64,000 nucleotides of DNA from NCBI GenBank assembly GCA_965218975.1, contig OZ244717.1, forward strand, positions 736,001 to 800,000, written 5' to 3'. Shown in pieces: positions 6-50,060 of this stretch; within the stretch, counting starts at the first letter, position 1, and the number at the start of each line of letters is the position of its first letter. A program made the translations under genes and the position numbers. Under the pieces are notes generated by a model. It had not been told where the DNA came from. It saw only the letters and a program-made list of their open reading frames with translations, and searched no databases. This stretch comes from Candidatus Oxydemutatoraceae bacterium (GTDB taxonomy: Bacteria; Pseudomonadota; Gammaproteobacteria; Poriferisulfidales; Oxydemutatoraceae).

Positions 6-2387
6 GTGTCGATTGAGATGGAGAACATGAATGTTCATCCTGTTAGTCGCGGGTATTCGCTGACGCTTGAGCTGGGAGGGACGGCGACGTTCGGCGGCGA
101 CTACGTCATCACGGATATAGACGGCAATCCGTTGGCGTCGCCGCCTACATTTGATGTAGCGCAAGACCAAACAATGCTTGAAGCCCGCCTGATAATAACG
201 GACGATCGGGTGTTTGAGGGTGAGGAGACGATTGAGATACGCTTGAGCACGACCGAGCCGAAGATCCTGATAGACGACGCTACGACGCAGACGATCACAC
301 TCATCGACAACGATGCGGCGCCGGTATTGTTTCTGTCGGTGAGCACGACTGCCATTGACGAAGGCGAATCAATTGATATTACGCTAGAGATCACGAACGA
401 ATCGGTATTTGCTGAGGATCAAACGATTGCGTTAGAGTTTACCGGCGATGCGATGCCTGGAGACGACTATACGGTATCGGTCGACGGTTCGCCGCTGTTA
501 CCGCCGTATGAGTTGACTTTAACGGCGGGAGAATCTGCGCTAAGCGTAACGATCATGGCGCTAATAGACGACATGACGACCGATATGGCGACCGAGGCGG
601 ATGAAGCGATCGAGATAACCGCATTGCATGGCGCCGATACAATCGGTAAAAAAACGCTCACGATCATCAGCGACGTCAGTCCGGTTGAACGCATTGCGGA
701 TTTGACGCCGGCAGTCCTCGGAAATTTCACTCCGGGCGCAGTGATTCCGTCCGAAATCGGGCGCTATATCGTCATTCCGGGCCAGCGTAACGACGGCGCG
801 AGCATTGATGCGACTGCTTTGTTGGTCAGATTTAATCCTTCGTTGCGTGCTTGTATTGTCAATGATTCTGTGGCGAGCGAACCGTCGTATCAATTCGACT
901 GCGATGTTTTGTCCGGGCCGTTGGCGGAAGACTCGACAGTTCAGGCGCCGGTATTCGGCAGCGTGTTGTATTGGGCCGATGTCAGAGACGACAAGGGCCT
1001 GATTGTTCGGGCAACAAGCCAAAAGATTTATGTCGCGCCGCTGCTCGGATTCGCTTCCGGCTTGCAAGCGATTGCGTCTGATACCGCGTCGGCGGACGTG
1101 CTGTTATTAACGTCGGACGATGCCGATGTGCCGAGCTCAATCAATCTTGATTTTGAAGCGGGGGTTAGTCCGAGCGTTCCTTTTGAAGACGGGCGCGGCA
1201 CAGTAAGCATCAACGCGTTGTCAGCAGGAGATATTCTTCGGCTTACGGCAATCAACGGAGTTGCTTTTAGCGGCGCCGATTCTGATTTGAACGCGGTCAC
1301 CGAAGCGATGCTCGCCATGCACGAGCTATTTGCGTTGGGCAACAATGCGCTGAGATTGATTGAGGCAAAAGAGGCGGGTATCAATCCGATTGAGTCTGTG
1401 GACCCGGGACTGTCGGCGGAGTTGATTGTGTTTGATCAAGTGACGACGATTACGCTGACGAACGATTATATGGTTGATGTGTTCGTATATAGCACAGCGA
1501 CGGCGATGTTTGAGTTGGCGGGCATGTCCGAAGATGCGGTAAGAGAATTGATCATCGACTTGAGCGACAATGAGCTTAAGGCTATTGACCGTGAAGGTGA
1601 AGAGTGGGTCATTTCGCTTGAAGATGCGGATTTCAGCCCGTACATTTTTCAAGTGATGATGTCGACGAATCAGGAAGTGACGGCAAGTATTCATGCGCTC
1701 GGCGATGTTGCGGATGAATTAGGCATGATTGATGCCGACTTGACGCTGGCAACGACGGGGACATTGCTGACCGGCTTTTACGCTTACAAGCAAGCGGATG
1801 AAGCGAGCGTCGGCGTAGCGCGTATCACAAGCAACGCGATTTTGAATCTTCCGCCGTTACCGGACGGTCGCGAAGTTGCGGAGGTAGAGAGCGGCGTATT
1901 TGATTTCATCGCTGCCGATTTGACCGGCGGTGTTGCGACGGTCGTGGTTGAATTGTCCGCGGCGGCGCAGGAAGGGTCGCGTTACTACAAGTATCAACCG
2001 GATGACGGCTGGACAGAATTCAACACGAGTAGCAACGATAGGATTTACAGTGCACCGGCGCCGTGTCCGAGTGCGCAAGCCAGCCGCGAGCCGGATGCGG
2101 GCGGCGGTCTGAGTGACTATGCGTGGCGTTTGGTCTCCGACGGCGTTCGCGCAGACGATGAGTGTTTGCTGCTGGAAATTGAGGACGGTTCGGTCAATGA
2201 CTCCGACGGGAGAGTCAACGGGATTATCTTTGATCCGGGCGCGTTGGTGCAGTTTGTCGCAAGAGTCGGTGGCGGCGGCGGCGGTGCGGTCGGCTTGTGG
2301 TGGCTGCTTCTGTTCGTCGGTATCATTTTGGCGGCGATGGTCTTGAAACGCCGGAATGCAAGACCGACGCGGCGGATTTCACCTTAA
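6..2387 (+). CDS. Large surface protein, C-terminal part (5' end lies outside the window): Calx-beta/Ig-like domains, choice-of-anchor-U-like domain, GlyGly-CTERM sorting signal
   Basis: Frame is open from the window edge. Acidic Calx-beta-like motifs (DDRVFEGEETI, IDNDAAP); YYKY...CLLLEIEDGSVNDSDGRVNGIIFDPG domain; ends GGGGGGAVGLWWLLLF-TM-KRR. Confidence 0.85.
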   Translation: MSIEMENMNVHPVSRGYSLTLELGGTATFGGDYVITDIDGNPLASPPTFDVAQDQTMLEARLIITDDRVFEGEETIEIRLSTTEPKILIDDATTQTITLIDNDAAPVLFLSVSTTAIDEGESIDITLEITNESVFAEDQTIALEFTGDAMPGDDYTVSVDGSPLLPPYELTLTAGESALSVTIMALIDDMTTDMATEADEAIEITALHGADTIGKKTLTIISDVSPVERIADLTPAVLGNFTPGAVIPSEIGRYIVIPGQRNDGASIDATALLVRFNPSLRACIVNDSVASEPSYQFDCDVLSGPLAEDSTVQAPVFGSVLYWADVRDDKGLIVRATSQKIYVAPLLGFASGLQAIASDTASADVLLLTSDDADVPSSINLDFEAGVSPSVPFEDGRGTVSINALSAGDILRLTAINGVAFSGADSDLNAVTEAMLAMHELFALGNNALRLIEAKEAGINPIESVDPGLSAELIVFDQVTTITLTNDYMVDVFVYSTATAMFELAGMSEDAVRELIIDLSDNELKAIDREGEEWVISLEDADFSPYIFQVMMSTNQEVTASIHALGDVADELGMIDADLTLATTGTLLTGFYAYKQADEASVGVARITSNAILNLPPLPDGREVAEVESGVFDFIAADLTGGVATVVVELSAAAQEGSRYYKYQPDDGWTEFNTSSNDRIYSAPAPCPSAQASREPDAGGGLSDYAWRLVSDGVRADDECLLLEIEDGSVNDSDGRVNGIIFDPGALVQFVARVGGGGGGAVGLWWLLLFVGIILAAMVLKRRNARPTRRISP

Positions 2388-2553
2388 AAAATTATACTAA
2401 AAACCCAGTCCTGTTCCCCCATATCGCTATAAAAACAAACTTAAACCGAGTTCATATATTGAACTATAACGTTGTTTCTGTCGGGTGAAAAACATAATAC
2501 CATCTGTATATAGGACTGATGACAGTATTATTCCGGTTACACCTTGTTTATAA

Positions 2554-3008
2554 CTTGACTTCGATAAAATCCGATCAGAACTTCGCTATCATTGCTTTTA
2601 ACTTCATAGGTTTCTTGACTTCGTAGGTTTTGTCTCGTAAGTGATTGATATTATTGCCTTCAGGATTCTCAAGGGCACTACATACGCGGATACGGTGTTG
2701 TTTGTAGCCCTCCGCGCTCAGCTTCCCCCAGGGCGTGACTTGTCGGGAAGCGGGAACGGAGCTTCGTTCCATTTCAGACCTACGCTACGGTAGATCCTGT
2801 TGGCGTCCGCGCTCGCGCGGCTCGGTATCGCATACCGCTCCTATGTGTCGGTATGTACCAAGATGCTCAACTGCAAGGTGTCCAGCTCGCGCTGGATCCG
2901 CTCCGCGCTCATCGGGAAGCCCAGCGCCTTAAGCCGCCGACACAGCTGCTGCAAGCAGCAGAAGGCCATGTAGCAGATCGCAATGTGTGCGCGGATGCGC
3001 CGGATAAA
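2554..3008 (-). mobile_element. IS1634-family remnant (transposase C-terminus and right end)
   Basis: Minus-strand peptide RRIRAHIAICYMAFCCLQQL..LGFPMSAERIQRELDTLQLSIL resembles IS1634 C-termini; followed by TGTAGTGCCC...AATCACTTAC...GAAGTCAAG end-like sequence (CTTGACTTCG occurs at 2554 and 2614). Confidence 0.6.
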
Positions 3009-3890
3009 ATGCGCCGTGTTCCGCAGCGCACGAATGCAAAAGGGCAAACAAAACGACTGTTCAAGCGCCGTTGCAGGGCACACAAGCCGAAAGACTTCAA
3101 AGCACAGTATCCGGGGCCATTGCATCGCCCTAGATACAATTGTGCGTTATCAGCACGGGATGCGCCGCACCGTCTTAACGGCCATCGATGTCTATACCCG
3201 AATGGCAATAGCAGTGGCAACCAACCGCTGTAACAGCCGCAACGCAGCCGCATTTCTGCGCCTGGCAGAATTTCGGCAGCAGTAAAGTCTTTGAGCTGAT
3301 GAAACCATTTTGTGTTTGCTGCCGGATTGTCGGCAAAGTGCCTGTCGTCCATGACGAGACTTGGTTCTGTCAATGAGCGCCAGCCCCGACGTCCTTGTCG
3401 GGTCGTTCGCCGCTGAAAACCGTTCGGTTTTCCGGGCACATCTCACCCTGACGGACGGCGGTAGTGAGTTTCAAGGACAGTTTGCCCAGCTCATCCGGGA
3501 ATCGCTCGCGATTGAGCAGTGGCTGACCTATCCCAAGTGTCCAAAAATGAACGCGCACATCGAGCGCTTCAACCGCACTGTCCAGGAGGATTGTATTGAT
3601 CATGCAGAAGATCTGCTATTCGCCGATACGGAAGCATTCAATGACCGGTTATGGAACCGTTTTGTGTTTGCTGCCGGATTGTCGGCAAAGTGCCTGTCGT
3701 CCATGACGAGACTTGGTTCTGTCAATGAGCGCCAGCCCCGACATCCTTGTCGGATCGTTCGCCGCTGAAAACCGATCGGTTTTCCGGGCGCGTCTCATCC
3801 TGCACCGTCCTCATGCCGGCAACGGACAGAAAGCACCGATCCGAATGTTACTGCCGAACGCTTCTCCCGAAGCGCTTCAAACATCCCATT
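2994..3890 (+). mobile_element. Fragmented IS481-family transposase remnant containing two 98-bp units
   Basis: Pieces DAPDKMRR..YPG, HCIALDTI..AIDVYTR, LTDGGSEF..YPKCPKMNAHIERFNRTVQED, HRPHAG are integrase-core DDE motifs, interrupted by frameshifts and repeat units. Confidence 0.8.
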
Positions 3891-3960
3891 GCCGGTGGTG
3901 GTATTATATAGCGTGCAGGCTATCAGCTTTATTGCTATAATAAAAACAAAAACTATTATT

Positions 3961-6387
3961 ATGCGTTTTTCTTGTATACGTACTTCGGTCGGCATATGCT
4001 GCATACTGTATGCTTTATTGATACAGGCGCAGCAGACTCAGCCCGCAGCTCCCAGCAACGTAGAAGTTACACCCGGTGACAGACAGATTACCGTGACCTG
4101 GCAGTCCCCGGCCGAGGGAACCGGCGGCCCGGTTGCAGACTACCGCATCGGTTGGACTCCGCCCGACGGCATCGGCAGCGCGACTGTCGCAGCAGATGTG
4201 AGCGAATATACGATCGAGGGTCTGACCAACGACACCGAATACACAATCGAAGTCGCAGCCGTCAACGCAAGCGGCGCGACTAGCGCAGTAGCCGTGATCG
4301 AGACCCCGATCGCACCGCTGCCTTTGCTGCCCGGTGCGCCGACGACTTTGACGGCAACACCGGGTAACGGGCAGGTAGAATTGGAGTGGGCGCCGCCGGA
4401 AGATATCGGCGGCAGCGCAATCACGCGTTATGAATATCGGCAGAGAGCCGCCGACGGGGATTTCGGTTCATGGAAGATTATCCCGGACGGCGATGATGCG
4501 GACAGCGATGCTGGCAACGAGACGCGCTCTACAGTCACTAGTCTGACGAACGGCATCGCATATACCTTCCAAGTGCGTGTGGCCAACGCCGCGGGCCCAG
4601 GCGAGGCAACAGATGAAGTAACGACGATTGCAGGAGCGGGCTTGGGTATTTGCGATCGCACACCGCAGGTTCGAAAGGCGATTCTTAACCGGCTTTCCGG
4701 CATAAGCGACTGTGCGGCGGTAACCGATGCCGATCTGAACTCCCTCGCCGGGGAGTTGAGCTTGTCCGAAAGAGAGATTGCCTCCCTGAGGGTGGGGGAC
4801 TTTGAGGGGCTCGTTACTCTGACGACGCTGAATCTGAGTTATAATTCGCTATCGAGTCTATCTGCGGGCATATTTGATGGTCTTGGTTCTTTAATCGGGC
4901 TGAATTTGGGGAACAATCAATTATCGAGTCTGCCTGCGGGCGTATTTGATAATCTTGATTCTTTAACATGGCTGAATCTGAGTTTTAATTCGCTATCGAG
5001 TCTATCTGCGGGCGTATTTGATGGTCTTGGTTCTTTAATATGGCTGTCTTTGCTGATCAATCAATTATCGAGTCTGCCTGCGGGCGTATTTGATGATCTT
5101 GGTTCCTTAATAAGGCTGAATTTGGGGAACAGTCAATTATCGAGTCTGCCTGCAGACGTATTTGATAATCTTGATTCTTTAACATGGCTGAATTTGTCGG
5201 TCAATCGATTATCGAGTCTGCCCGACGGCATATTCGAGCGCCTCACGTCGCTTGAAATAATTTTTTTGATGTATAATCCCGGCAGTGACTCCTTCATACC
5301 GTCGGCGAATGCCGGATCCGACCGGTTCGCTGTCGCCAGCGAAGTCGTTATGCTGGACGCTACCGCCACCGACGGCGGTCCGTTCGGGGACAACGTGAGC
5401 TTTGCGTGGTCGCAGGACGGAAGCGATAGCACGACTGTAACGTTGACCGGCGCCGCTACCGCCACGCCTAGGTTCACCGTGCCGGCGGACGCGCCGGACG
5501 GGACCGTGTTTCGATTTGATCTGACAGTGATCGGCGGGAATAAGTTTGGGACTGATAAGCTTGGGATTCTTGAAGATGATTTCTCTCGGCAGAGACTGAC
5601 AGACAGTTCCTCGGTGAGGGTAACGGTTGCGACGCCACCCGACGCGCCGACGGCACTGACGGCGACAACGCACAACAGTAGTGTGGATCTAAGTTGGAAC
5701 GCACCTGCCGACCCCGGCATTGCGCCGATCAGCCATTACGAATATCGCGCGAGCAGCGACGCCGGAACGGTTTGGGACCCGAACTGGACGATCGCCGGTG
5801 ATGCGACGAGCGAAGTCAGAACTCAAATCGTGTCGGGCTTAACCAACGGCACGGAATACACATTTGAAGTGCGGGTGGTCAGTGCGGTAGGCGCCGGCGC
5901 AGCCGCGCGCGTCACGGCGACACCGAACGTGGCGATATTCACGGTCTCGTTTGATCCGATAGACTATCCGACCAATGAAAGTGAGGGAAGTGTAATTCTC
6001 ATGCTCAGACTGATCGGCGAAAGACCGTTGCGCGGCGATGTAACCGCTAATGTCTCGACAAGCGAAGGGAGCGCATTCGCCCCTCATGATTATGTCGAGC
6101 GTAGTAGTGTTTCTGTTTCCTTTACGCTTGCTTCACCTGTGCCGCAACCTGTGACGATTTCTATTGTCGATGACGACGTTTTTGAACCCGATGATGAGAT
6201 ATTTTCGGTGATCATTACCGATGTATCGGCGGCGCATCGTGACGATGAGGCGGTGATTGATCAGAGCGAAGCGACGATTACGATCATCGACAACGATGAT
6301 GCGCCGGTATTGTCCCTGTCGGTCGGCGCAACCGAAATCAATGAAGGCACATCAACCGATGTTGTAGTAGAGATGACGGCGACATAA
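3961..6387 (+). CDS. Giant surface adhesin, N-terminal segment (signal peptide, FN3 x2, LRRs, PKD-like, FN3, Calx-beta)
   Basis: Signal-like MRFSCIRT..LLIQA; FN3 motifs (LTNDTEYTIEVAAVN); 24-aa LRRs (LSSLPAGVFDNLDSLTWLNL); stop falls inside the first, damaged 348-bp repeat. Confidence 0.85.
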   Translation: MRFSCIRTSVGICCILYALLIQAQQTQPAAPSNVEVTPGDRQITVTWQSPAEGTGGPVADYRIGWTPPDGIGSATVAADVSEYTIEGLTNDTEYTIEVAAVNASGATSAVAVIETPIAPLPLLPGAPTTLTATPGNGQVELEWAPPEDIGGSAITRYEYRQRAADGDFGSWKIIPDGDDADSDAGNETRSTVTSLTNGIAYTFQVRVANAAGPGEATDEVTTIAGAGLGICDRTPQVRKAILNRLSGISDCAAVTDADLNSLAGELSLSEREIASLRVGDFEGLVTLTTLNLSYNSLSSLSAGIFDGLGSLIGLNLGNNQLSSLPAGVFDNLDSLTWLNLSFNSLSSLSAGVFDGLGSLIWLSLLINQLSSLPAGVFDDLGSLIRLNLGNSQLSSLPADVFDNLDSLTWLNLSVNRLSSLPDGIFERLTSLEIIFLMYNPGSDSFIPSANAGSDRFAVASEVVMLDATATDGGPFGDNVSFAWSQDGSDSTTVTLTGAATATPRFTVPADAPDGTVFRFDLTVIGGNKFGTDKLGILEDDFSRQRLTDSSSVRVTVATPPDAPTALTATTHNSSVDLSWNAPADPGIAPISHYEYRASSDAGTVWDPNWTIAGDATSEVRTQIVSGLTNGTEYTFEVRVVSAVGAGAAARVTATPNVAIFTVSFDPIDYPTNESEGSVILMLRLIGERPLRGDVTANVSTSEGSAFAPHDYVERSSVSVSFTLASPVPQPVTISIVDDDVFEPDDEIFSVIITDVSAAHRDDEAVIDQSEATITIIDNDDAPVLSLSVGATEINEGTSTDVVVEMTAT

Positions 6388-32305: not shown

Positions 32306-33053
32306 TAGCGATAAAGGAAGCAGCTTAGTTTCTCACCTCACCGAACTGCGCGGCCGTTTACTCAAAGCCGCCGCCGCGGTGGGCGTTATTTTTTTGATTT
32401 TATTCCCGTTCGCGAATGACCTGTATCAGTATTTGTCGGTACCGCTTCTGCGTTATTTGCCTGAGGGTGTTTCAATGATCGCCATTGAAGTCGCCTCACC
32501 TTTTTTAGTGCCGTTTAAGCTTGCACTGCTGTTGTCGTTTTTTCTGACGATGCCGTATTTGCTGTATCAGGTATGGGCCTTTGTCGCGCCGGGCTTATAT
32601 CGCAACGAACGAAGAATTGCTTTACCGTTGATTGTCTCAAGCACGATATTGTTTTATCTTGGTATCGCATTTGCTTACTTTATCGTGTTTCCTCTGATGT
32701 TCGGTTTTTTTACCGCCGTCGCGCCGGTCGGAGTGACAGTGATGACGGATATCGCACACTATCTGAGCTTTGTATTCAAGATATTCATCGCCTTTGGTAT
32801 CGCTTTTGAAGTACCGGTAGCAACCGTGTTATTGGTCAAGGTCGGAACGATGACTTCCGGCAAACTTGCCGCGAAACGTCCGTACGTAATCATCGGAGCG
32901 TTTGTCGTCGGCATGATTTTAACGCCGCCGGACGTGCTTTCTCAGGTATTACTGGCGATACCGATTTGGATATTATTTGAACTAGGGCTATTATTCACTC
33001 GCTGGTTACCAGCAGCACAAGATACTACAGATACACGAAATAGCACGACATGA
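32277..33053 (+). CDS. tatC: Twin-arginine translocase subunit C
   Basis: [26 protein letters not shown]. Confidence 0.96.
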
Positions 33054-34338
33054 CAGCAATGGATCGACTGCCTGGGCAACGTACAGTGCTGGTGATTTTA
33101 GATGGTTTTGGGGTGAGTCCAAGCAAGTCCAATTCGGAGCGTTTGTCGTCGGCATGATTTTAACGCCGCCGGACGTGCTTTCTCAGGTATTACTGGCGAT
33201 ACCGATTTGGATATTATTTGAACTAGGGCTATTATTCACTCGCTGGTTACCAGCAGCACAAGATACTACAGATACACGAAATAGCACGACATGACAGCAA
33301 TGGATCGACTGCCTGGGCAACGTACAGTGCTGGTGATTTTAGATGGTTTTGGGGTGAGTCCAAGCAAGTCCAATTCGGAGCGTTTGTCGTCGGCATGATT
33401 TTAACGCCGCCGGACGTGCTTTCTCAGGTATTACTGGCGATACCGATTTGGATATTATTTGAACTAGGGCTATTATTCACTCGCTGGTTACCAGCAGCAC
33501 AAGATACTACAGATACACGAAATAGCACGACATGACAGCAATGGATCGACTGCCTGGGCAACGTACAGTGCTGGTGATTTTAGATGGTTTTGGGGTGAGT
33601 CCAAGCAAGTCCAATTCGGAGCGTTTGTCGTCGGCATGATTTTAACGCCGCCGGACGTGCTTTCTCAGGTATTACTGGCGATACCGATTTGGATATTATT
33701 TGAACTAGGGCTATTATTCACTCGCTGGTTACCAGCAGCACAAGATACTACAGATACACGAAATAGCACGACATGACAGCAATGGATCGACTGCCTGGGC
33801 AACGTACAGTGCTGGTGATTTTAGATGGTTTTGGGGTGAGTCCAAGCAAGTCCAATTCGGAGCGTTTGTCGTCGGCATGATTTTAACGCCGCCGGACGTG
33901 CTTTCTCAGGTATTACTGGCGATACCGATTTGGATATTATTTGAACTAGGGCTATTATTCACTCGCTGGTTACCAGCAGCACAAGATACTACAGATACAC
34001 GAAATAGCACGACATGACAGCAATGGATCGACTGCCTGGGCAACGTACAGTGCTGGTGATTTTAGATGGTTTTGGGGTGAGTCCAAGCAAGTCCAATTCG
34101 GAGCGTTTGTCGTCGGCATGATTTTAACGCCGCCGGACGTGCTTTCTCAGGTATTACTGGCGATACCGATTTGGATATTATTTGAACTAGGGCTATTATT
34201 CACTCGCTGGTTACCAGCAGCACAAGATACTACAGATACACGAAATAGCACGACATGACAGCAATGGATCGACTGCCTGGGCAACGTACAGTGCTGGTGA
34301 TTTTAGATGGTTTTGGGGTGAGTCCAAGCAAGTCCAAT
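32893..34338 (+). repeat. 6 x 241-bp perfect tandem repeat of the tatC 3' end / gpmI 5' end junction
   Basis: Units start at 32893, 33134, 33375, 33616, 33857, 34098 (TCGGAGCG...AAGTCCAAT). Confidence 0.97.
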
Positions 34339-35799
34339 AATGCGGTTTATCTTGCCGATACGCCGCGGCTGGATGATTTGTTTGCCCGTTATCCGCACAC
34401 ATTGCTCGAAGCATCGGGGCCGGCAGTGGGATTGCCGGTCGGGCAAATCGGCAACTCCGAAGTCGGACACATCGCGATGGGGTGCGGTTGTACCATTGAA
34501 CAAGATATCGTACGGATTAATGCTGCGATTGAAGACGGCTCTTTTTTTGAGAATCCTTCATTGGTTTTTGCGATGAAAAAAATTGCCAAGGGCAATCGGC
34601 GTATGCAGCTGATTGGGTTAGTGTCGGACGGCGGTGTTCATTCGCATATCGCACATTTGAAAGCGCTGATTAAATTATGCAAGCAACATCGGGTGCGGCC
34701 GTTTTTGCATATGATTACCGACGGACGCGATACCGCGCCGCGATATGCGCAAGAGTTTATCAGTGAAGTGGAGCCATTGCTTAAATCTGCGGGCGGTGCG
34801 ATTATAACTATTATGGGGCGCTATTATGCAATGGATCGCGATCAACGTTGGGAGCGAACCGAACAAGCGTGGCGAGCGATTATATGCGCCGCGGGCGAGA
34901 AATTTATTTCTGCGATGCAGGCAGTGCATGCCGCATACGCTTCGGGTATCGGAGATGAATTTATTCGTCCCGCAGTGTTGTCGGGCGCGCAACCGCTGAC
35001 TCAAAATGATCCGTTTATCTTGTTCAATTTCAGAAACGACCGACCACGACAGTTGATGTATGCGTTGACAATGCCCGAGTTTGACAATTTTGACCGCGGC
35101 GATGCGCCTTTGGTTGATGTGACGACTATGACCGAAGTTGATAAGAAGCTGCCGAGTTTGATTGCGTTTGCGCCGATTCGCCCGAAAACTACTTTAAGCG
35201 GCGTGATCAGCGAGGCAGGATATAAGCAATTTCATTGCGCAGAAACGGAAAAATACCCGCATGTAACTTTTTATTTCAACGGCGGTGTGGAGAGTCCGCT
35301 CGCCGGTGAAGACAGAACCTTGATTCCGTCGCCGAAAGTTTCAACATACGATTTGCAACCACAGATGAGTGCGGCGGAGGTTACTGCGGCGGTGATGCAA
35401 GCGATGCGTAACCCCGAGTATGCGTTTATTGTCGTCAATTTTGCCAATACCGATATGGTCGGACATACCGCTCTTGCGGAGCCGCTGATTCAAGCGGTCA
35501 AAACGGTGGATTTTCACACCGGGCAGATTGTCGATGTGGCATTTGAGCACGACTGGGCGGTTTTGATTACTGCCGATCATGGGAATTGCGATGAGATGCT
35601 GGATCCGCAGACGCAACAACCCAATACGCAGCATACATTAAATCCGGTGCCCTGTTTAATTGTCAGTGCGCACAATTGTCAATTGGCGAGCGGATGCAGC
35701 ATCAGCAGCATCGCGCCGACGGTACTTGATTTGATGGGGCTTGAAATTCCTCGCGAAATGGAAGCGCCGTCGGTGATTGTGCGCAGTAGTGACGGTTGA
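34255..35799 (+). CDS. gpmI: 2,3-bisphosphoglycerate-independent phosphoglycerate mutase
   Basis: [41 protein letters not shown]. Confidence 0.96.
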
Positions 35800-36699: not shown

Positions 36700-36917
36700 T
36701 TAATGATGCAGTGCGAGCACGCCGGTATAGACGCCTACGACGCCTGCGATCGTCACGATTGCACCGATAAGGATACCGACGACCCACTGAGTCGTACTGA
36801 TTTTTGCTGGGCAATTTCGATCTTCAGCTCATGTAGTCCCTTTTCGAGCTCATACTGTCCTTTTTCAAGATTCAGCAATCGCCGGTCAACGTCTTCAAGC
36901 GTTATTTCCATATCCAT
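36700..36917 (-). CDS. Small coiled-coil protein with C-terminal TM (cassette C; frameshift in an A5 run at ~36801-36805)
   Basis: MDMEITLEDVDRRLLNLEKGQYELEKGLHELKIEIAQQ; adding one A continues into KISTTQWVVGILIGAIVTIAGVVGVYTGVLALHH*. Absent from the ORF track; paralogous to 46129 and 48290. Confidence 0.65.
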
Positions 36918-37067
36918 TCTTTTTGATTATTCCCGCATGGAAACTCACCCTGCGGGTTAAACAAATTGAGTCGCCGACCATATAAAACTAGTCATGAGAA
37001 CTCATACCGCAACGCTTATTATCATTGCATTGAATGATGACCCGAACCGTCCGGTTTGTCAAGTTTA

Positions 37068-39079
37068 TGTACGATGCCACCTTAAATGGGATTTTTGAAG
37101 GGCTTCGGGGGGAAGCGTTCGGCAGTAACATTCGGATCGGTGCTTTCTGTCCGTTGCCGGCATGAGGACGGTGCAGGGTGAGACGCGCCGCTGAAAACCG
37201 ATTGGGTTTCAGCGGCGAACGACTCGACAAGGACGTCAGGGCTGGCGCTCATTGACAGAACCAAGTCTCGTCATGGGTGAGACGCGCCCGGAAAACCAAT
37301 TGGTTTTCAGCGGTGAACGACCCGACAAGGATGTCGGGGCTGGGGCTTGTTGACAGAACCCAGTCGCGTCATGGGTGAGACGCGCCCGGAAAACCAATTG
37401 GTTTTCAGCGGTGAACGACCCGACAAGGATGTCGGGGCTGGGGCTTGTTGACAGAACCCAGTCGCGTCATGGGTGAGACGTGCCCGGAAAACCGATCGGT
37501 TTTCAGCGGCGAACGACCCGACAAGGATGTCGGGGCTGGGGCTTGTTGACAGAACCCAGTCGCGTCATGGGTGAGACGCGCCCGGAAAACCAATTGGTTT
37601 TCAGCGGCGAACGACCCGACAAGGATGTCGGGGCTGGGGCTTGTTGACAGAACCCAGTCGCGTCATGGATGACAGGCACTTTGCCGACAATCCGGCACAA
37701 TTCGCCAGCAAACACAAAATGGTTTCATCAGCTCAAAGATTTTACTGCTGCCGAGATTCGGATAAGCTTGGCGCAGGGTGGGACGCGCCCGGAAAACCGA
37801 TCGGTTTTCAGCGGCGAACGACCCGACATGGATGTCGGGGCTGGCGTTCATTGACAGAACCAAGTCTCGTCATGGGTGAGACGCGCCCGGAAAACCAATT
37901 GGTTTTCAGCGGCGAACGACCCGACAAGGATGTCGGGGCTGGGGCTTGTTGACAGAACCCAGTCGCGTCATGGATGACAGGCACTTTGCCGACAATCCGG
38001 CACAATTCGCCAGCAAACACAAAATGGTTTCATCAGCTCAAAGATTTTACTGCTGCCGAGATTCGGATAAGCTTGGCGCAGAGTGAGACGCGCCCGGAAA
38101 ACCGACTGGTTTTCAGCGGCGAACGACTCGACAAGGACGCCGGGGCTGGGGCTTGTTGACAGAACCCAGTCGCGTCATGGGTGAGACGCGCCCGGAAAAC
38201 CAATTGGTTTTCAGCGGCGAACGACCCGACAAGGATGTCGAGGCTGGGGCTTGTTGACAGAACCCAGTCGCGTCATGGATGACAGGCACTTTGCCGACAA
38301 TCCGGCACAATTCGCCAGCAAACACAAAATGGTTTCATCAGCTCAAAGATTTTACTGCTGCCGAGATTCGGATAAGCTTGGCGCAGAGTGAGACGCGCCC
38401 GGAAAACCGACTGGTTTTCAGCGGCGAACGACTCGACAAGGATGTCGGGGCTGGCGTTCATTGACAGAACCAAGTCTCGTCATGGGTGAGACGCGCCTGG
38501 AAAACCGATCGGTTTTCAGCGGCGAACGACCCGACAAGGATGTCGAGGCTGGGGCTTGTTGACAGAACCCAGTCGCGTCATGGGTGAGACGCGCCCGGAA
38601 AACCAATTGGTTTTCAGCAGTGAACGACCCGACAAGGATGTCGGGGCTGGAGCTTGTTGACAGAACCTAGTCGCGTCATGGATGACAGGCACTTTGCCGA
38701 CAATCCGGCACAATCCGCCGACAACACGGCAACAAGCGCAAAACGGTTTCACACTGAATCGGTTGCGGCCAGATCCGCTGGCGCCTCTTACGCGGCGCTT
38801 TGCCGCGATCATGTAAGGCGCTGAGGCCAGTGCGGCGATAACGCCGACGCCAGCGGTACAAAGTACTGCGACCGATCTTGAATGCGTTCGGGAGTTACAA
38901 CCCTCCCAAAATGAGGGCATCATATTTTTGTTGAGCCGTTGTGTTCATAATGGCCTCTATTTTTGAAGCAAAATTGGCTCATATAGAAACCTTTGATGCG
39001 GTGGCCGATGTGCTGATATTGCATATCGGTTACCTTTTTGAGTCGTGCCGTAAATCCCACATGTATCTGGCACTGTACA
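37068..39079 (-). mobile_element. Internally deleted IS481-family element carrying an array of 12 x 98-bp units
   Basis: Ends TGTACAGTGCC (39079) and GGCATCGTACA (37068); HTH fragment TLYRWRRRYRRTGLSALHDRGKAPRKRRQRIWPQPI; C-terminal HRPH fragment. Confidence 0.85.
37175..38680 (-). repeat. Array of 98-bp double-hairpin units with a 305-bp higher-order period (98+98+109)
   Basis: Unit carries the CCCGACATCCTTGTCGGG hairpin and GAAAACC(AATT/GATC)GGTTTTC palindrome; the 109-bp spacer encodes transposase piece LRQAYPNLGSSKIFELMKPFC. Confidence 0.92.
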
Positions 39080-45193: not shown

Positions 45194-45948
45194 TGTACGT
45201 GTCCGGATACATACTGGATTCTTGGACGTCAATAAAAAGGTGACCGACATGCAATACCAGCACATTGGCCACCGCATCAAAGGTTTCTATATGAGCCAAT
45301 TTTGCTTCAAAAATAGAGGCTATATAGAGGCTATTATGAACACAACGGCTCAACAGAAATATGATGCCCTATTATTTTTGGAGGGTTGTAACTCCCGAAC
45401 GCATTCAAGATCGGTCGCAGTACTTTGTACCGCTGGCGTCGGCGTTATCGCCGCACTGGCCTCAGCACCTTACATGATCGCGGTAAAGCGCCGCGTAAGA
45501 GGCGCCAGCGGATTGTCAGTAAAGTGCTTGTCGTCCATGACGAGACTTGGTTCTGTCAATGAGCGCCAGCCCTGACGTCCTTGTCGAGTCGTTCGCCGCT
45601 GAAAACCGGTCGGTTTTCCGGGCGCGTCTCACCCTGCGCCAGGCTTATCCGAATCTCGGCAGCAGTAAAATCTTTGAGCTGATGAAACCGTTTTGTGTTT
45701 GTTGGCGGATTGTGCCGGATTGTCGGCAAAGTGCCTGTCATCCATGACGCGACTTGGTTCTGTCAACAAGCCCCAGCCCCGACATCCTTGTCGGGTCGTT
45801 CGCCGCTGAAAACCGGTCGGTTTTCCGGGCGCGTCTCACCCTGCACCGTCCTCATGCCGGCAACGGACAGAAAGCACCGATCCGAATGTTACTGCCGAAC
45901 GCTTCCCCCGAAGCCCTTCAAAAATCCCATTTAGAGTGGCATCGTACA
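45194..45948 (+). mobile_element. Internally deleted IS481-family element with two 98-bp units
   Basis: Begins TGTACGTGTCCGG, ends GGCATCGTACA; N-terminal MQYQHIGHRIKGFY and HTH fragments; HRPH C-terminal fragment. Confidence 0.85.
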
Positions 45949-45953
45949 TCGGT

Positions 45954-45982
45954 TTGACAAATCGCCGGAACGACGTTATTCT
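45954..45982 (+). promoter_or_regulatory. sigma70 promoter of cassette A
   Basis: TTGACA-17bp-TATTCT. Confidence 0.7.
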
Positions 45983-45989
45983 CGTTTAC

Positions 45990-46128
45990 AATAACGTTAT
46001 GAGCCTTGAGGTAACTAATGCTCATAACCGGCGATGTTGTCGGCGCCTCAAAACCGATACTTGTCCATGATGCGGGACGAACATCCCGTGCGGGCGTTTC
46101 TCCATGCGGGCGTAGCCCTCAACTTAAA
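45990..46128 (+). ncRNA. Candidate structured leader RNA (homologous to minus-strand leaders at ~48520-48640 and ~36920-37030)
   Basis: GTTATGAGC/GCTCATAAC stem; loop TTGAGG complementary to CCTCAA; shared AAACCGATACTTG and TCCAT..GGG blocks. Confidence 0.45.
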
Positions 46129-46350
46129 ATGGAGACGATTATAGAAATTACTGCTGAGAAATTTGAACAGGAAATTCGAAAGCTTGAGCAGGGACAAAAG
46201 GACCTTGAGCAGGGACAAAAGAACCTTGAGCAAAAGCTGTCCGACTCTCATCGTGAATTTATTATCTGGGTGGTCGGTTTGTTCATCGGCACCGGGGTGC
46301 TGATGACCGCCTTGGGCAGCCTGTATATCAACATTCTGCTTGTGAATTAG
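46129..46350 (+). CDS. Small coiled-coil protein with C-terminal TM (cassette A; CCDC90/DUF1640-like architecture)
   Basis: METIIEITAE, LEQGQKD/N heptads encoded by a 21-bp tandem repeat, WVVGLFIG TM. Confidence 0.7.
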   Translation: METIIEITAEKFEQEIRKLEQGQKDLEQGQKNLEQKLSDSHREFIIWVVGLFIGTGVLMTALGSLYINILLVN

Positions 46351-46400: not shown

Positions 46401-46435
46401 ACACGGAAAGCCGCCTTCGAGCGGCTTTTTCGTGT
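46401..46435 (+). terminator. Rho-independent terminator of cassette A
   Basis: ACACGGAAAGCCGCCTTCGAGCGGCTTTTTCGTGT. Confidence 0.75.
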
Positions 46436-46620: not shown

Positions 46621-46990
46621 GTGAGTTTCAAGGACAGTTTGCCCGGCTCATCCGGGAATCACCCGCGATTGAGCAGTGGCTAACCTATCCCAAGTGTCCA
46701 AAAATGAACGCGCACATCGAGCGCTTCAACCGCACCGTCCAAGAAGATTGTATCGATCATGCGGAAGACCTGCTATTTACCGATACGGAAGCATTCAATG
46801 ACCGGTTATGAAACCGTTTTGTGTTTGTTGGCGGATTGTGCCGGATTGTCGGCAAAGTGCCTGTCATCCATGACGCGACTTGGTTCTGTCAACAAGCTCC
46901 AGCCCCGACATCCTTGTCGGGTAGTTCGCCGCTGAAAACCGGTCGGTTTTCCGGGCGCGTCTCACCCTGCTCGTCCATGCCGAGACTTGG
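46621..46990 (+). mobile_element. IS481 catalytic-domain fragment plus one 98-bp unit
   Basis: SEFQGQFA..YPKCPKMNAHIERFNRTVQED, nearly identical to 3464-3650. Confidence 0.8.
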
Positions 46991-47261
46991 CGCTGCCGAA
47001 CGCATCCTCGTAATGGCAGAGCAGGACGTTCAACATATGCGCAATTTTGAGAACAAGGCTTTAGACGCCGCCCGTTACCAACAACTCACGGGACAGGTCT
47101 GCGGTTTTATCATCGGCATCATCGCATTATTCGCAGCGGTCGCCGCTTTATTCCTTGGCCATGAAGTTGTCGCTGCGATTATCGGCGCTACAACGGTAGC
47201 TAGCCTCGGTGCTGTTTTTGTAACAGGAAGGATCGCCAAGCCAAAAGGCAGAGGCATATAA
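46989..47261 (+). pseudogene. 5'-truncated DUF2335 membrane protein fused to the repeat unit
   Basis: GAAERILVMAEQ...H..., GQ..GF, two TM; near-identical to 49385-49657. Confidence 0.7.
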
Positions 47262-47641: not shown

Positions 47642-48055
47642 TTAGCGAATACGCCAGGGTTTCAAAAACTGGGATAAAAGAAAAGAAACACCTAGTAACC
47701 CTAACCCGCCCGCGGCCCATCCATGGCCGCTTATTGCCAAATAAGTACCAAGAAAAAGTCCTAACACCGCTAAGAAAAAAGCCATATATTGACCACGCTT
47801 TACATGCCCATTTGCCTGAGCTAACCCATGGCTTTTCATATCAATGATATGCTTTTGCCTGTCCTCCGCCATGCAAATAATGCGGTCAGCCGCCCCTTTA
47901 ATCACATCCTCGTACTTTTGCAATTCCGACGAGCGTGGTAGAGGGCCCTTATGCTGCTCCATCTGCACCACACGACGGAGGTCCTTGCTTTGATCAGGGA
48001 CGTTGCGCGGCTTGCTTTTCTGTAACGGCTGCTTTGTACTCTTCCGTTTGCTCAT
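47642..48055 (-). CDS. DUF2335 family membrane protein
   Basis: GPLP.SSELQKYE....GAADRI..MAE..Q.H, RGQ..AF, two TM. Confidence 0.82.
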   Translation of the reverse strand: MSKRKSTKQPLQKSKPRNVPDQSKDLRRVVQMEQHKGPLPRSSELQKYEDVIKGAADRIICMAEDRQKHIIDMKSHGLAQANGHVKRGQYMAFFLAVLGLFLGTYLAISGHGWAAGGLGLLGVSFLLSQFLKPWRIR

Positions 48056-48203: not shown

Positions 48204-48289
48204 GATTCTCATCCTAATACTATATTCAAAAAACGATTCAAGTGTACGATGCTGTATAGGCCCATAACATTCGGCACTCCAGGTGGTGA

Positions 48290-48496
48290 TTACCAGATCA
48301 GAGTCAGGACGCCGATGACGGCGAACAGCGTCGTGAACGCGAGCGTCACGAACCACGTCTTCACCGAGTCGACTTTGCTTTCCAGTTTCTCAAAGCGGCG
48401 ATCGAGCGCTTGATCGCGTTTGTCGAGTTCTTCTTTGAATTTGACCTTCAGCTCTTGTTGCTGTTGACAGATCGTCTCTAAAGTAATTTCCATCAT
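48290..48496 (-). CDS. Small coiled-coil protein with C-terminal TM (cassette B)
   Basis: MMEITLE...LDRRFEKLESKVDSVKTWFVTLAF TM; preceded by the conserved leader. Confidence 0.7.
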   Translation of the reverse strand: MMEITLETICQQQQELKVKFKEELDKRDQALDRRFEKLESKVDSVKTWFVTLAFTTLFAVIGVLTLIW

Positions 48497-48645
48497 CGTC
48501 TTCATTATAGGTTGATTCACAAGAAAATGCCCTAATGGATTCGGCCCCTTACAGGAGCGCCATCCCGTCGGGGCAAGTATCGGTTTCGAGGCGCTGGCCG
48601 GGTCGTGAGCAGTTAATGCCTCCGAAGCTCATAATATTGTGCTTA

Positions 48646-49747: not shown

Positions 49748-50060
49748 TGTACGATGCCACCCTAAATGGGATTTTTGCAGCGCTTCTCTGTCTGCATACT
49801 CACAGGCAGGCACGCACAAGCAGGGTCTCGTCATGGGTGAGACGCGCCCGGAAAACCGATCGGTTTTCAGCGGCGAACGACCCGACAAGGATGTCGGGGC
49901 TGGGGCTTGTTGACAGAACCCAGTCGCGTCATGGATGACAGGCACTTTGCCGACAATCAGGCACTTTGCCGACAATCAGGCACTTTGCCGACAATCCGGC
50001 ACTTTGCCGACAATCAGGCACAATCCGCCGAACATCCGCCAACAAACACAAAACGGTTCA
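49748..50060 (-). mobile_element. IS481 right end, one 98-bp unit and a 19-bp tandem repeat
   Basis: TGTACGATGCCAC at 49748; GGCACTTTGCCGACAATC(A) repeated about 4 times. Confidence 0.8.

Follow-up and report, generated by a model that had tools for sequence, protein, structure and literature searches.

A hairpin and anti-Shine-Dalgarno module in predicted 5' leaders of small membrane-protein gene cassettes of a Candidatus Oxydemutatoraceae bacterium

The 5' untranslated regions (UTRs) of the ROSE and fourU RNA thermometers comprise several hairpins, the last of which pairs the Shine-Dalgarno (SD) region with a pyrimidine-rich strand, whilst the 5' UTR of ompA carries a 5'-terminal stem-loop that acts as a stabiliser. 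In the type I toxin mRNA of the H. pylori aapA3/IsoA3 system, hairpins that sequester the SD sequence are described by Masachis et al. 2019 (PMC6733600). The present analysis concerns leaders of a comparable layout in a window of 64,000 nucleotides (the whole stretch analysed; G000:C1:736001-800000) of the single-contig, 2.081-Mb genome (47.7% G+C) of a Candidatus Oxydemutatoraceae bacterium, where three cassettes, termed A, B and C, place such a leader between a sigma70-like promoter and a small open reading frame (ORF).

The best reading of the sequence is that of a structured and undescribed leader, predicted to be transcribed, that stands before a small membrane-protein gene. With a probability of roughly 55%, we take it to be the 5' untranslated leader, with a gating module, of a self-contained, many-copy gene cassette, which would comprise a sigma70-type promoter, a leader of ~150–190 nt, an ORF of 60–80 amino acids (aa), and a terminator. 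The leader is a real, lineage-restricted motif of a known general kind, and its conserved core is a simple hairpin joined to a module that would mask the ribosome site. A first-pass annotation had proposed an undescribed cis-regulatory RNA built around a 5' stem (stem 1) whose loop pairs downstream to give an H-type pseudoknot. Its structured leader without an Rfam match stands, with a 3' module that covaries across genera, but the elements that it stressed are unsupported, and conservation in the leader lies outside the stem and pseudoknot that first catch the eye.

The 3' module and a possible translational gate

The part of the leader that appears to be under selection is its last 60–70 nt, which hold a G+C-rich bipartite hairpin, the CU-rich box UCUCCUU, and the SD sequence. 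This 3' module adjoins the start codon and is common to the upstream regions of the small-protein genes in genera g1, which includes the source genome, and g5, with its elements running in the order -10 box, short gap, hairpin (CCCGC..GGGAG..CUCCC..GCGGG), UCUCCUU, AAGGAGA, and ATG. In cassette C the module extends over 36909–36964 of the reverse strand, from CCCGC...GCGGG to the start codon, and is matched by covariance models of the hairpin alone (R1; 23.7 bits, E = 0.0095), of two helices from three near-identical leaders (a, b, and c) of genome G017 (R2; 16.8 bits, E = 0.017), and of two helices built from 13 clean sense-strand rows (R3; 39.7 bits, C itself being among the R3 seeds). In cassette A a diverged counterpart of this hairpin (P1/P2), GTCC..GCGGGA/TCCCGT..GGGC, lies at 46063–46095 on the forward strand, followed by the CU-rich anti-SD box TCTCCAT at 46099–46105, which is complementary to ATGGAGA at 46129–46135. 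The first-pass annotation had noted this hairpin as a second stem in A and B, and RNAfold recovers it in both, at -11.5 kcal/mol in A and at -17.7 kcal/mol in B (48574–48544), with folds computed at 37 °C throughout.

R1 returned 25 matches in 6 of 19 genomes of the taxonomic family, 24 of them just upstream of small-protein ORFs by their coordinates, and R2 retrieves leaders from other genera. With R3, 40 matches were obtained at E ≤ 0.05 in 13 of the 53 genomes of the order; all 25 matches with E ≤ 1e-4 fall within the window's own taxonomic family, in genera g1, g5, g4, and g2, and only four marginal matches (E = 0.01–0.04) fall outside it. Every one of the 22 strong R3 matches examined ends at a start codon (21 ATG, one GTG), with the ORFs behind them (39–201 aa) comprising 18 small coiled-coil/membrane proteins and four other genes. 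These four, all from one island of G017, encode a RadC-like protein (Pfam E = 7.7e-44), two unknown proteins, and a 97-aa membrane protein. Since the 3' module precedes both diverged and unrelated genes, it is portable.

The G017 island (G017:C2, ~1,088–1,105 kb; L067, L103, L136, and L140) contains at least five copies of this promoter-leader module fused at the start codon to differing genes, the targets being the RadC-like protein, three unknown proteins of 139, 201, and 97 aa, and one small protein of the family under study. Two of these copies have identical upstream sequence as far as the start codon and diverge from there on.

Both helices of the module covary in alignments fitted to its model. 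In a set of 13 sense-strand leaders, pairing extends to 93.2% of 192 cells, and two-sided changes affect 13 of the 20 pairs, with a covariation score of 0.323 against 0.179 in shuffles (reached by 0 of 500) and with 50–76% of cells paired in slid controls. The comparison with Rfam by cmscan, which had been suggested as a check, left the leaders without a match: Rfam 15 gave 0 matches at the gathering threshold over the whole window; around A, a threshold of E ≤ 10 admitted just two weak, unrelated matches, each lying 3' of the ORF, and in seven related loci at E ≤ 5 nothing fell at the leader coordinates. The 3' module is thus undescribed in that it is absent from Rfam 15 and was unmet in literature searches, which were not aimed at the motif.

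The CU box has complements in both the SD sequence and the 5' strand of the hairpin, which allows two nested folds, one with the hairpin formed and the ribosome-binding site (RBS) closed, the other with a long-range helix and an open site. In A the helix TCTCCAT:ATGGAGA has 7 bp and a stability of -10.1 kcal/mol (z = -2.3 against shuffles) and is paired in the minimum-free-energy fold, whilst in the G017 leaders a, b, and c the CU box and the SD region pair over 9–10 bases, with 10 perfect in a. For the alternative helix, which joins the hairpin 5' strand to the box, 87% of 103 cells could pair, a share not above that of shuffles. Fold energies of the leaders are mixed, with z-scores of -2.0 for A, -0.1 (-0.08) for B, -1.8 for C, and, for two copies beyond the window, +0.2 for D and -1.95 for J. 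The mean cost of opening the SD site is ~3.8 kcal/mol over the 22 strong R3 matches, and a stable hairpin lies a few nt from the predicted 5' end, with the RBS accessible in the minimum-free-energy fold of several copies.

We propose that the two local hairpins would form in the order of their synthesis and would hold the RBS closed, post-transcriptionally; the ribosome site would be freed where the CU box pairs instead with the G-rich 5' arm of the hairpin made first. A further effect of the 5' hairpin may be protection of the mRNA end. As masking of the SD site at equilibrium is unexceptional, gating is assigned to sequential local folding, and post-transcriptional gating by this route, possibly together with 5'-end protection, is suggested with moderate confidence. 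A bolder version, offered tentatively and in our view improbable, would make the 3' module a portable bistable gate in which both strands of the hairpin and the SD sequence, three purine tracts in all, compete for two pyrimidine tracts; in this uncultured gammaproteobacterial family it would serve mobile islands and fast-evolving arrays of XhlA-like small membrane toxins, delaying or restricting translation with no need of antisense RNA, and the five long leaders would add a pseudoknot-capable sensor domain.

If gating were true, the module would represent an undescribed family of cis-acting leaders, seemingly confined to poorly studied Gammaproteobacteria with small genomes, and would provide a compact, transferable form of expression control as well as a handle on the role of the small proteins. 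The module is tied to fast-evolving, many-copy, tiny tail-anchored membrane proteins and to genes of a mobile island.

The cassettes and their small proteins

A search of the 2.081-Mb genome with the leader profile (nhmmer) finds exactly five leaders of this type (type 1), with E = 6e-39 to 9e-16 and the next match at E > 5, rather than the three noted at first. Three of them (A, B, and C) fall inside the window, with D at ~1.846 Mb and J at ~1.001 Mb. A second leader type, with another 5' part and the same 3' module, is found in copies F, G, and H and in the remnant I'. No leader variants were seen among the contigs of runs X1, X5, and X6, those of X5 and X6 covering nothing beyond the upstream repeat and a portion of the ORF.

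Direct reading, a promoter scan, and RNAfold all bear out the sequence features noted for A, B, and C. The sigma70-like promoter of A, TTGACA-17-TATTCT, is predicted by consensus alone at 45954–45982 on the forward strand (10 of 12 matches), with those of B (TTGACG-16-TATTCT, 48673–48646, 9 of 12 matches) and C (TTGACA-17-CATCAT, 37062–37034, 10 of 12 matches) predicted in the same way on the reverse strand. Transcription from these sites would yield the leaders, that of B occupying 48506–48645 on the reverse strand and including a counterpart of stem 1 besides the hairpin described above. The small ORF of A (46129–46350, forward strand) encodes 73 aa with a coiled coil and a C-terminal membrane helix, and is followed by a likely terminator at 46407–46432 on the same strand, a G+C-rich hairpin and T run that was read by eye and is unlisted by the terminator scan. 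On the reverse strand, the ORF of B (48290–48505) encodes 71 aa, with the start position of the family corresponding to the ATG at 48493, and that of C (36700–36917) is broken by a frameshift, as judged by three-frame translation and the family profile.

Pairwise nucleotide identity is 0.59–0.79 between leaders and 0.59–0.73 between coding regions, with a shuffled baseline of 0.55, and the flanks of the leaders lie at about the baseline except for a repeat common to the regions upstream of A and C. The leaders therefore exceed their flanks in identity, as the first-pass annotation had expected of a conserved element; its impression that the leaders resemble each other more than the proteins do is borne out only in part, the leaders being about as conserved as the coding regions.

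Each type-1 leader precedes an ORF of 60–80 aa with a hydrophilic N-terminal coiled coil and one C-terminal membrane helix. The profile of this protein family detects ten genes or pseudogenes and one truncated remnant (I') in the source genome. Among the 18 other genomes of its taxonomic family, 12 carry matches to the profile, as many as 18 in a single genome, and 16 of the 61 genomes searched do so overall; protein lengths, relatives included, are 59–157 aa. The genes are solitary or in tandem arrays (of 2–5 members in relatives), with no lysis cassette nearby. The coiled coil varies by in-frame tandem repeats, exemplified in A by a 21-bp unit present in 2.4 copies (46183–46232) and in relatives (L044, L045, L046, L048, and L051) by repeats of 7–11 residues, which occur up to five times in G012 and G016.

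No Pfam or NCBIfam family is matched at the cut-off, the best being XhlA (PF10779) for A with 15.6 bits against a cut-off of 34.7. In a distant relative XhlA reaches at best 30.6 bits, still under that cut-off, and the best Pfam XhlA E value is 0.019. From 1.84 billion proteins, an exhaustive profile search drew only 340 representatives at E ≤ 1e-3, ten of which, when scanned, gave only generic coiled-coil or XhlA-like sub-threshold matches. A word-indexed protein search found 12 proteins, none of them named, and the ESM Atlas yielded only ‘hypothetical protein’ clusters.

Several copies are damaged. At the family start position, A (46141–46143) and J (L011 524–526) have ATA at a normal distance from a good SD sequence, with no in-frame ATG, GTG, or TTG upstream of the ATA in J, which could reflect decay of the start codon or a deliberately weak start. 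In C, the frame that encodes the N-terminal part is not that of the membrane helix, with profile matches at 772801–772911 and 772715–772795 (genome coordinates). In copy E, the leader has been replaced by the end of an insertion sequence.

Weighing gating against other explanations

A number of observations weigh against gating. The cost of opening the SD site is 3.44 kcal/mol for 36 leaders and 3.32 kcal/mol for 250 control genes (Mann-Whitney p = 0.35), and the probability that the site is paired gives a mixed picture when set against shuffles, with J and F more open than their own. Duplex enrichment is modest, with mean z-scores of -0.88 for box:SD and -0.68 for 5' strand:box, and p ≤ 0.05 in 3 of 23 and 2 of 23 leaders respectively, the paralogues being non-independent. 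The covariation counts given above derive from alignments fitted to the structure of the model and are hence inflated; in a MAFFT alignment that was not so fitted, P1 pairs at 84.5%, often through G-U, and is not above shuffles, and RNAalifold predicts no consensus structure on a MAFFT alignment of 22 leaders. The blank results with MAFFT and RNAalifold are attributed to the misalignment of variable-length helices, for which reason covariance-model alignments, which lean towards the model, were used instead. Both A (8.4 bits, E = 0.44, aligned over 46077–46131) and B (5.9 bits, E = 5.9) match R3 below significance with filters off, so that their membership of the motif is suggested by homology seen by eye and by single-sequence folds, by which both retain a hairpin and a CU box. 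The promoters of A, B, and C are consensus matches, from which their use and the RNA ends are predicted. Furthermore, three of the five type-1 copies have ORF lesions (ATA in A and J, the frameshift in C), and the leaders may therefore be decaying relics.

On the strength of such points, the cassettes might contain no regulatory RNA at all, with the likeness of the leaders arising from paralogous descent and gene conversion, the hairpins being generic 5' stabilisers or functionless, and A, B, and C being in decay. We regard this as unlikely rather than remote. It sits well with an SD opening cost equal to that of control genes, with leader conservation no higher than that of the coding region, with the lack of covariation in stem 1 and the pseudoknot stem, with folds of B and D no better than their own shuffles, and with the failure of A and B against the motif model; the damaged copies, to which the truncated I' and the insertion-sequence end at E belong along with A, J, and C, fit it as well. 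It is at odds with the presence of the 3' module in g1, g5, g4, and g2 before diverged proteins and even unrelated genes, with the constant abutment of the module on the start codon, with two-sided pair changes in both helices, and with the fall of identity to the baseline in the flanks outside the leader.

The small proteins raise a different prospect, that of a type I toxin-antitoxin-like arrangement in which a toxic membrane protein is encoded by an mRNA locked by the fold of its leader, the leader being the target of an antisense or trans-acting small RNA. The small membrane-protein genes occur in many copies, each standing alone and provided with its own predicted promoter and terminator, and the proteins show weak but recurrent similarity to phage XhlA and holin families, with the PHROG ‘hemolysin’ matching 4 of 8 members (best E = 0.004) and a holin PHROG weakly matched at E = 0.002. 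Frequent start-codon loss, frameshift, and truncation are as expected of a harmful product, and the leader has an anti-SD box, as does the H. pylori aapA3 mRNA (PMC6733600). The anti-SD:SD helix, which would close the RBS, covaries in fitted alignments, yet the cost of opening the site equals that of control genes. The antisense promoter-like site that overlaps the start region of A is unmatched in B and lies elsewhere in C, with no conserved antisense promoter found by the consensus scan of A, B, and C, which leaves the earlier suggestion of an antisense target unsupported. In addition, typical type I toxins are shorter than these proteins, which have a variable hydrophilic coiled coil and are only presumed to be toxic; no defence-system family in PADLOC matches them, and the leader motif also stands before genes for non-membrane proteins such as the RadC-like one. 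We consider such an arrangement distinctly improbable, and the cassettes are not filed as a type I system, for which the partner RNA, the toxicity, and the repression would all be presumed.

The inverted repeats could alternatively act as DNA, as operators for a repressor just downstream of the promoter rather than as RNA structures. They lie at about +5 to +35 from the predicted start, and in genus g4 (L019, L020, L032, L034, L037, and L038), where the small-protein genes are without the long leader, a palindrome with 9-bp arms overlaps the -35 element and spacer of the family's TATAAT promoter, with a recurring CCGTTCGTC word further upstream (both read by eye). The g4 arrangement suggests control by a DNA-binding protein there. 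For the leaders, the hairpin arms lie anywhere from 20 to 29 nt apart and 20 of 110 P1 cells hold G-U pairs, which fits an RNA stem and not a DNA operator of fixed spacing; each sense-strand G-U would appear as an A-C mismatch on the opposite strand, and the second helix includes the SD sequence itself. Operators are thus a very improbable account of the leader.

The elements to which the first-pass annotation had drawn attention lie in the 5' module of the type-1 leaders, and are readable in A as described: on the forward strand, stem 1 pairs 45996–46004 with 46020–46028 (9 bp, present in the minimum-free-energy fold), and its loop, TTGAGGT at 46006–46012, is complementary to GCCTCAA at 46045–46051. 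In an alignment of the five copies, 72% of cells are paired in stem 1 and 83% in the pseudoknot stem, together 77.6% of 67 cells, as against 33–49% for slid partners. Some changes are compatible with G-U pairing, and one pair is inserted in B. The changes in the pseudoknot stem are, however, one-sided only, and across both stems 0 of 15 pairs are altered on both sides, with covariation not above shuffles (500 of 500 shuffles reach the observed value). Copy J is without the 5' arm of stem 1 and copy C without the loop that would form the pseudoknot. The claim that pairing is kept while sequence changes therefore holds for one-sided, wobble-type changes but not for any pair altered on both sides, and the proposed H-type pseudoknot, with 0 of 15 compensatory pairs and with an arm missing in J and the loop in C, is not sustained.

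The homologue search that had been recommended found this 5' module in the source genome alone. When the A leader was compared by BLAST with the 53 genomes of the order, it met only itself, B, and short chance matches, the recurrent best of which lies inside nuoD; a strict pattern scan of metagenome contigs gave six matches, all unrelated, and the phage and plasmid collections gave none. Stem 1 and the TTGAGG/CCTCAA pairing are thus features of five paralogues of one genome, and their significance is unproven. Stem 1 contains the start of a short ORF in A (23 aa), B (27 aa), and D (18 aa), and a leader-peptide reading was rejected because C has only five codons and J has no start. The weakest of the explanations, that stem 1 and its loop pairing form a ligand- or signal-sensing RNA (riboswitch, ribozyme, or pseudoknot switch), can draw on the capacity of both stems for the H-type arrangement in A, B, and D, on the 78% of cells paired, and on the G-U compatible changes and the inserted pair, but the lack of two-sided changes, the incomplete copies J and C, the confinement of the module to one genome, and the absence both of an Rfam match and of an unpaired core conserved across taxa leave nothing that points to a riboswitch or ribozyme and bring this reading, judged by comparison, close to refuted.

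Neighbouring repeats and the closest known systems

The cassettes lie among abundant repeats. Just upstream of promoter A and outside the leader, 45860–45948 (forward strand) is the end segment of a repeat with 95 copies in the genome by BLAST; the same segment also occurs upstream of C and, elsewhere in the genome, of F, and words of the repeat have a depth of 2000–5000 in the contigs of run X1, compared with ~21 for the unique flank. The complete element is a composite, present in the window at 37167–38785, 45475–45948, 46808–46970, and 49748–49964 and genome-wide in G000, in which arrays of a 98-bp unit (327 BLAST matches in ~87 clusters) end in the 89-nt segment with its 95 copies per 2.08 Mb. 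Intact repeat ends are followed 4–9 nt on by TTG and, 16–18 nt after that hexamer, by TAnnnT in 25 of 91 cases, compared with 0.5% of 5000 random positions, which places the arrays directly upstream of promoter-like sites, those of A, C, and F included.

Other repeats in the window include a perfect 241-bp tandem repeat at 33000–34338 (5.6 copies, 100% identity), which may be a real amplification or an assembly artefact, and which takes in the first bases of a 514-aa ORF (34255–35799) that by eye looks like a phosphoglycerate mutase. A 19-bp direct repeat with an internal GGCA..TGCC palindrome is present in 4.4 copies at 49939–50021, with single copies inside the 305-bp repeats at 37654–38723, and is a candidate iteron-like or protein-binding-site array. 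A sequence of ~30 nt is common to the 3' side of ORF B (48240–48290) and the upstream region of copy E (L006), where it abuts, as read by eye, the end of a transposase-like reading frame, and it looks like the terminus of an insertion sequence. Between A and B lie two ORFs with similarity to DUF2335, a predicted membrane protein (46821–47261 on the forward strand and 47642–48055 on the reverse strand), one of them scoring 34.2 bits, above the Pfam cut-off, and the other 22.2 bits, below it.

With respect to described systems, the small proteins resemble XhlA (PF10779) and phage holin-like PHROGs in being short, with a coiled coil at the N terminus and one membrane helix at the C terminus, but their profile scores fall below the Pfam cut-off and they are not accompanied by a lysis cassette. 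Of the analogues for the leader itself, the 5' UTR of ompA shares a stable hairpin near the predicted 5' end followed by an accessible RBS, to which the leaders described here add a conserved CU box complementary both to the hairpin 5' strand and to the SD sequence. The layout of the leaders also resembles that of the ROSE and fourU thermometers; however, the ROSE families are in Rfam and the leaders have no match there, and the genes downstream are not heat-shock genes.

The aapA3 mRNA differs from the cassettes in that they are without an evident antisense partner, encode proteins of at least 60–80 aa with a coiled coil, have no sequence or Rfam relationship to it, and show SD masking at equilibrium not above that of control genes. 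Each is a small membrane-protein gene with its own promoter, each has CU-rich anti-SD stretches in the 5' UTR that are able to close the RBS in short local hairpins, and in each these local hairpins are proposed to form during transcription. The SD-sequestering hairpins of type I toxin mRNAs such as aapA3 are the closest counterpart, in logic, to the module described here.

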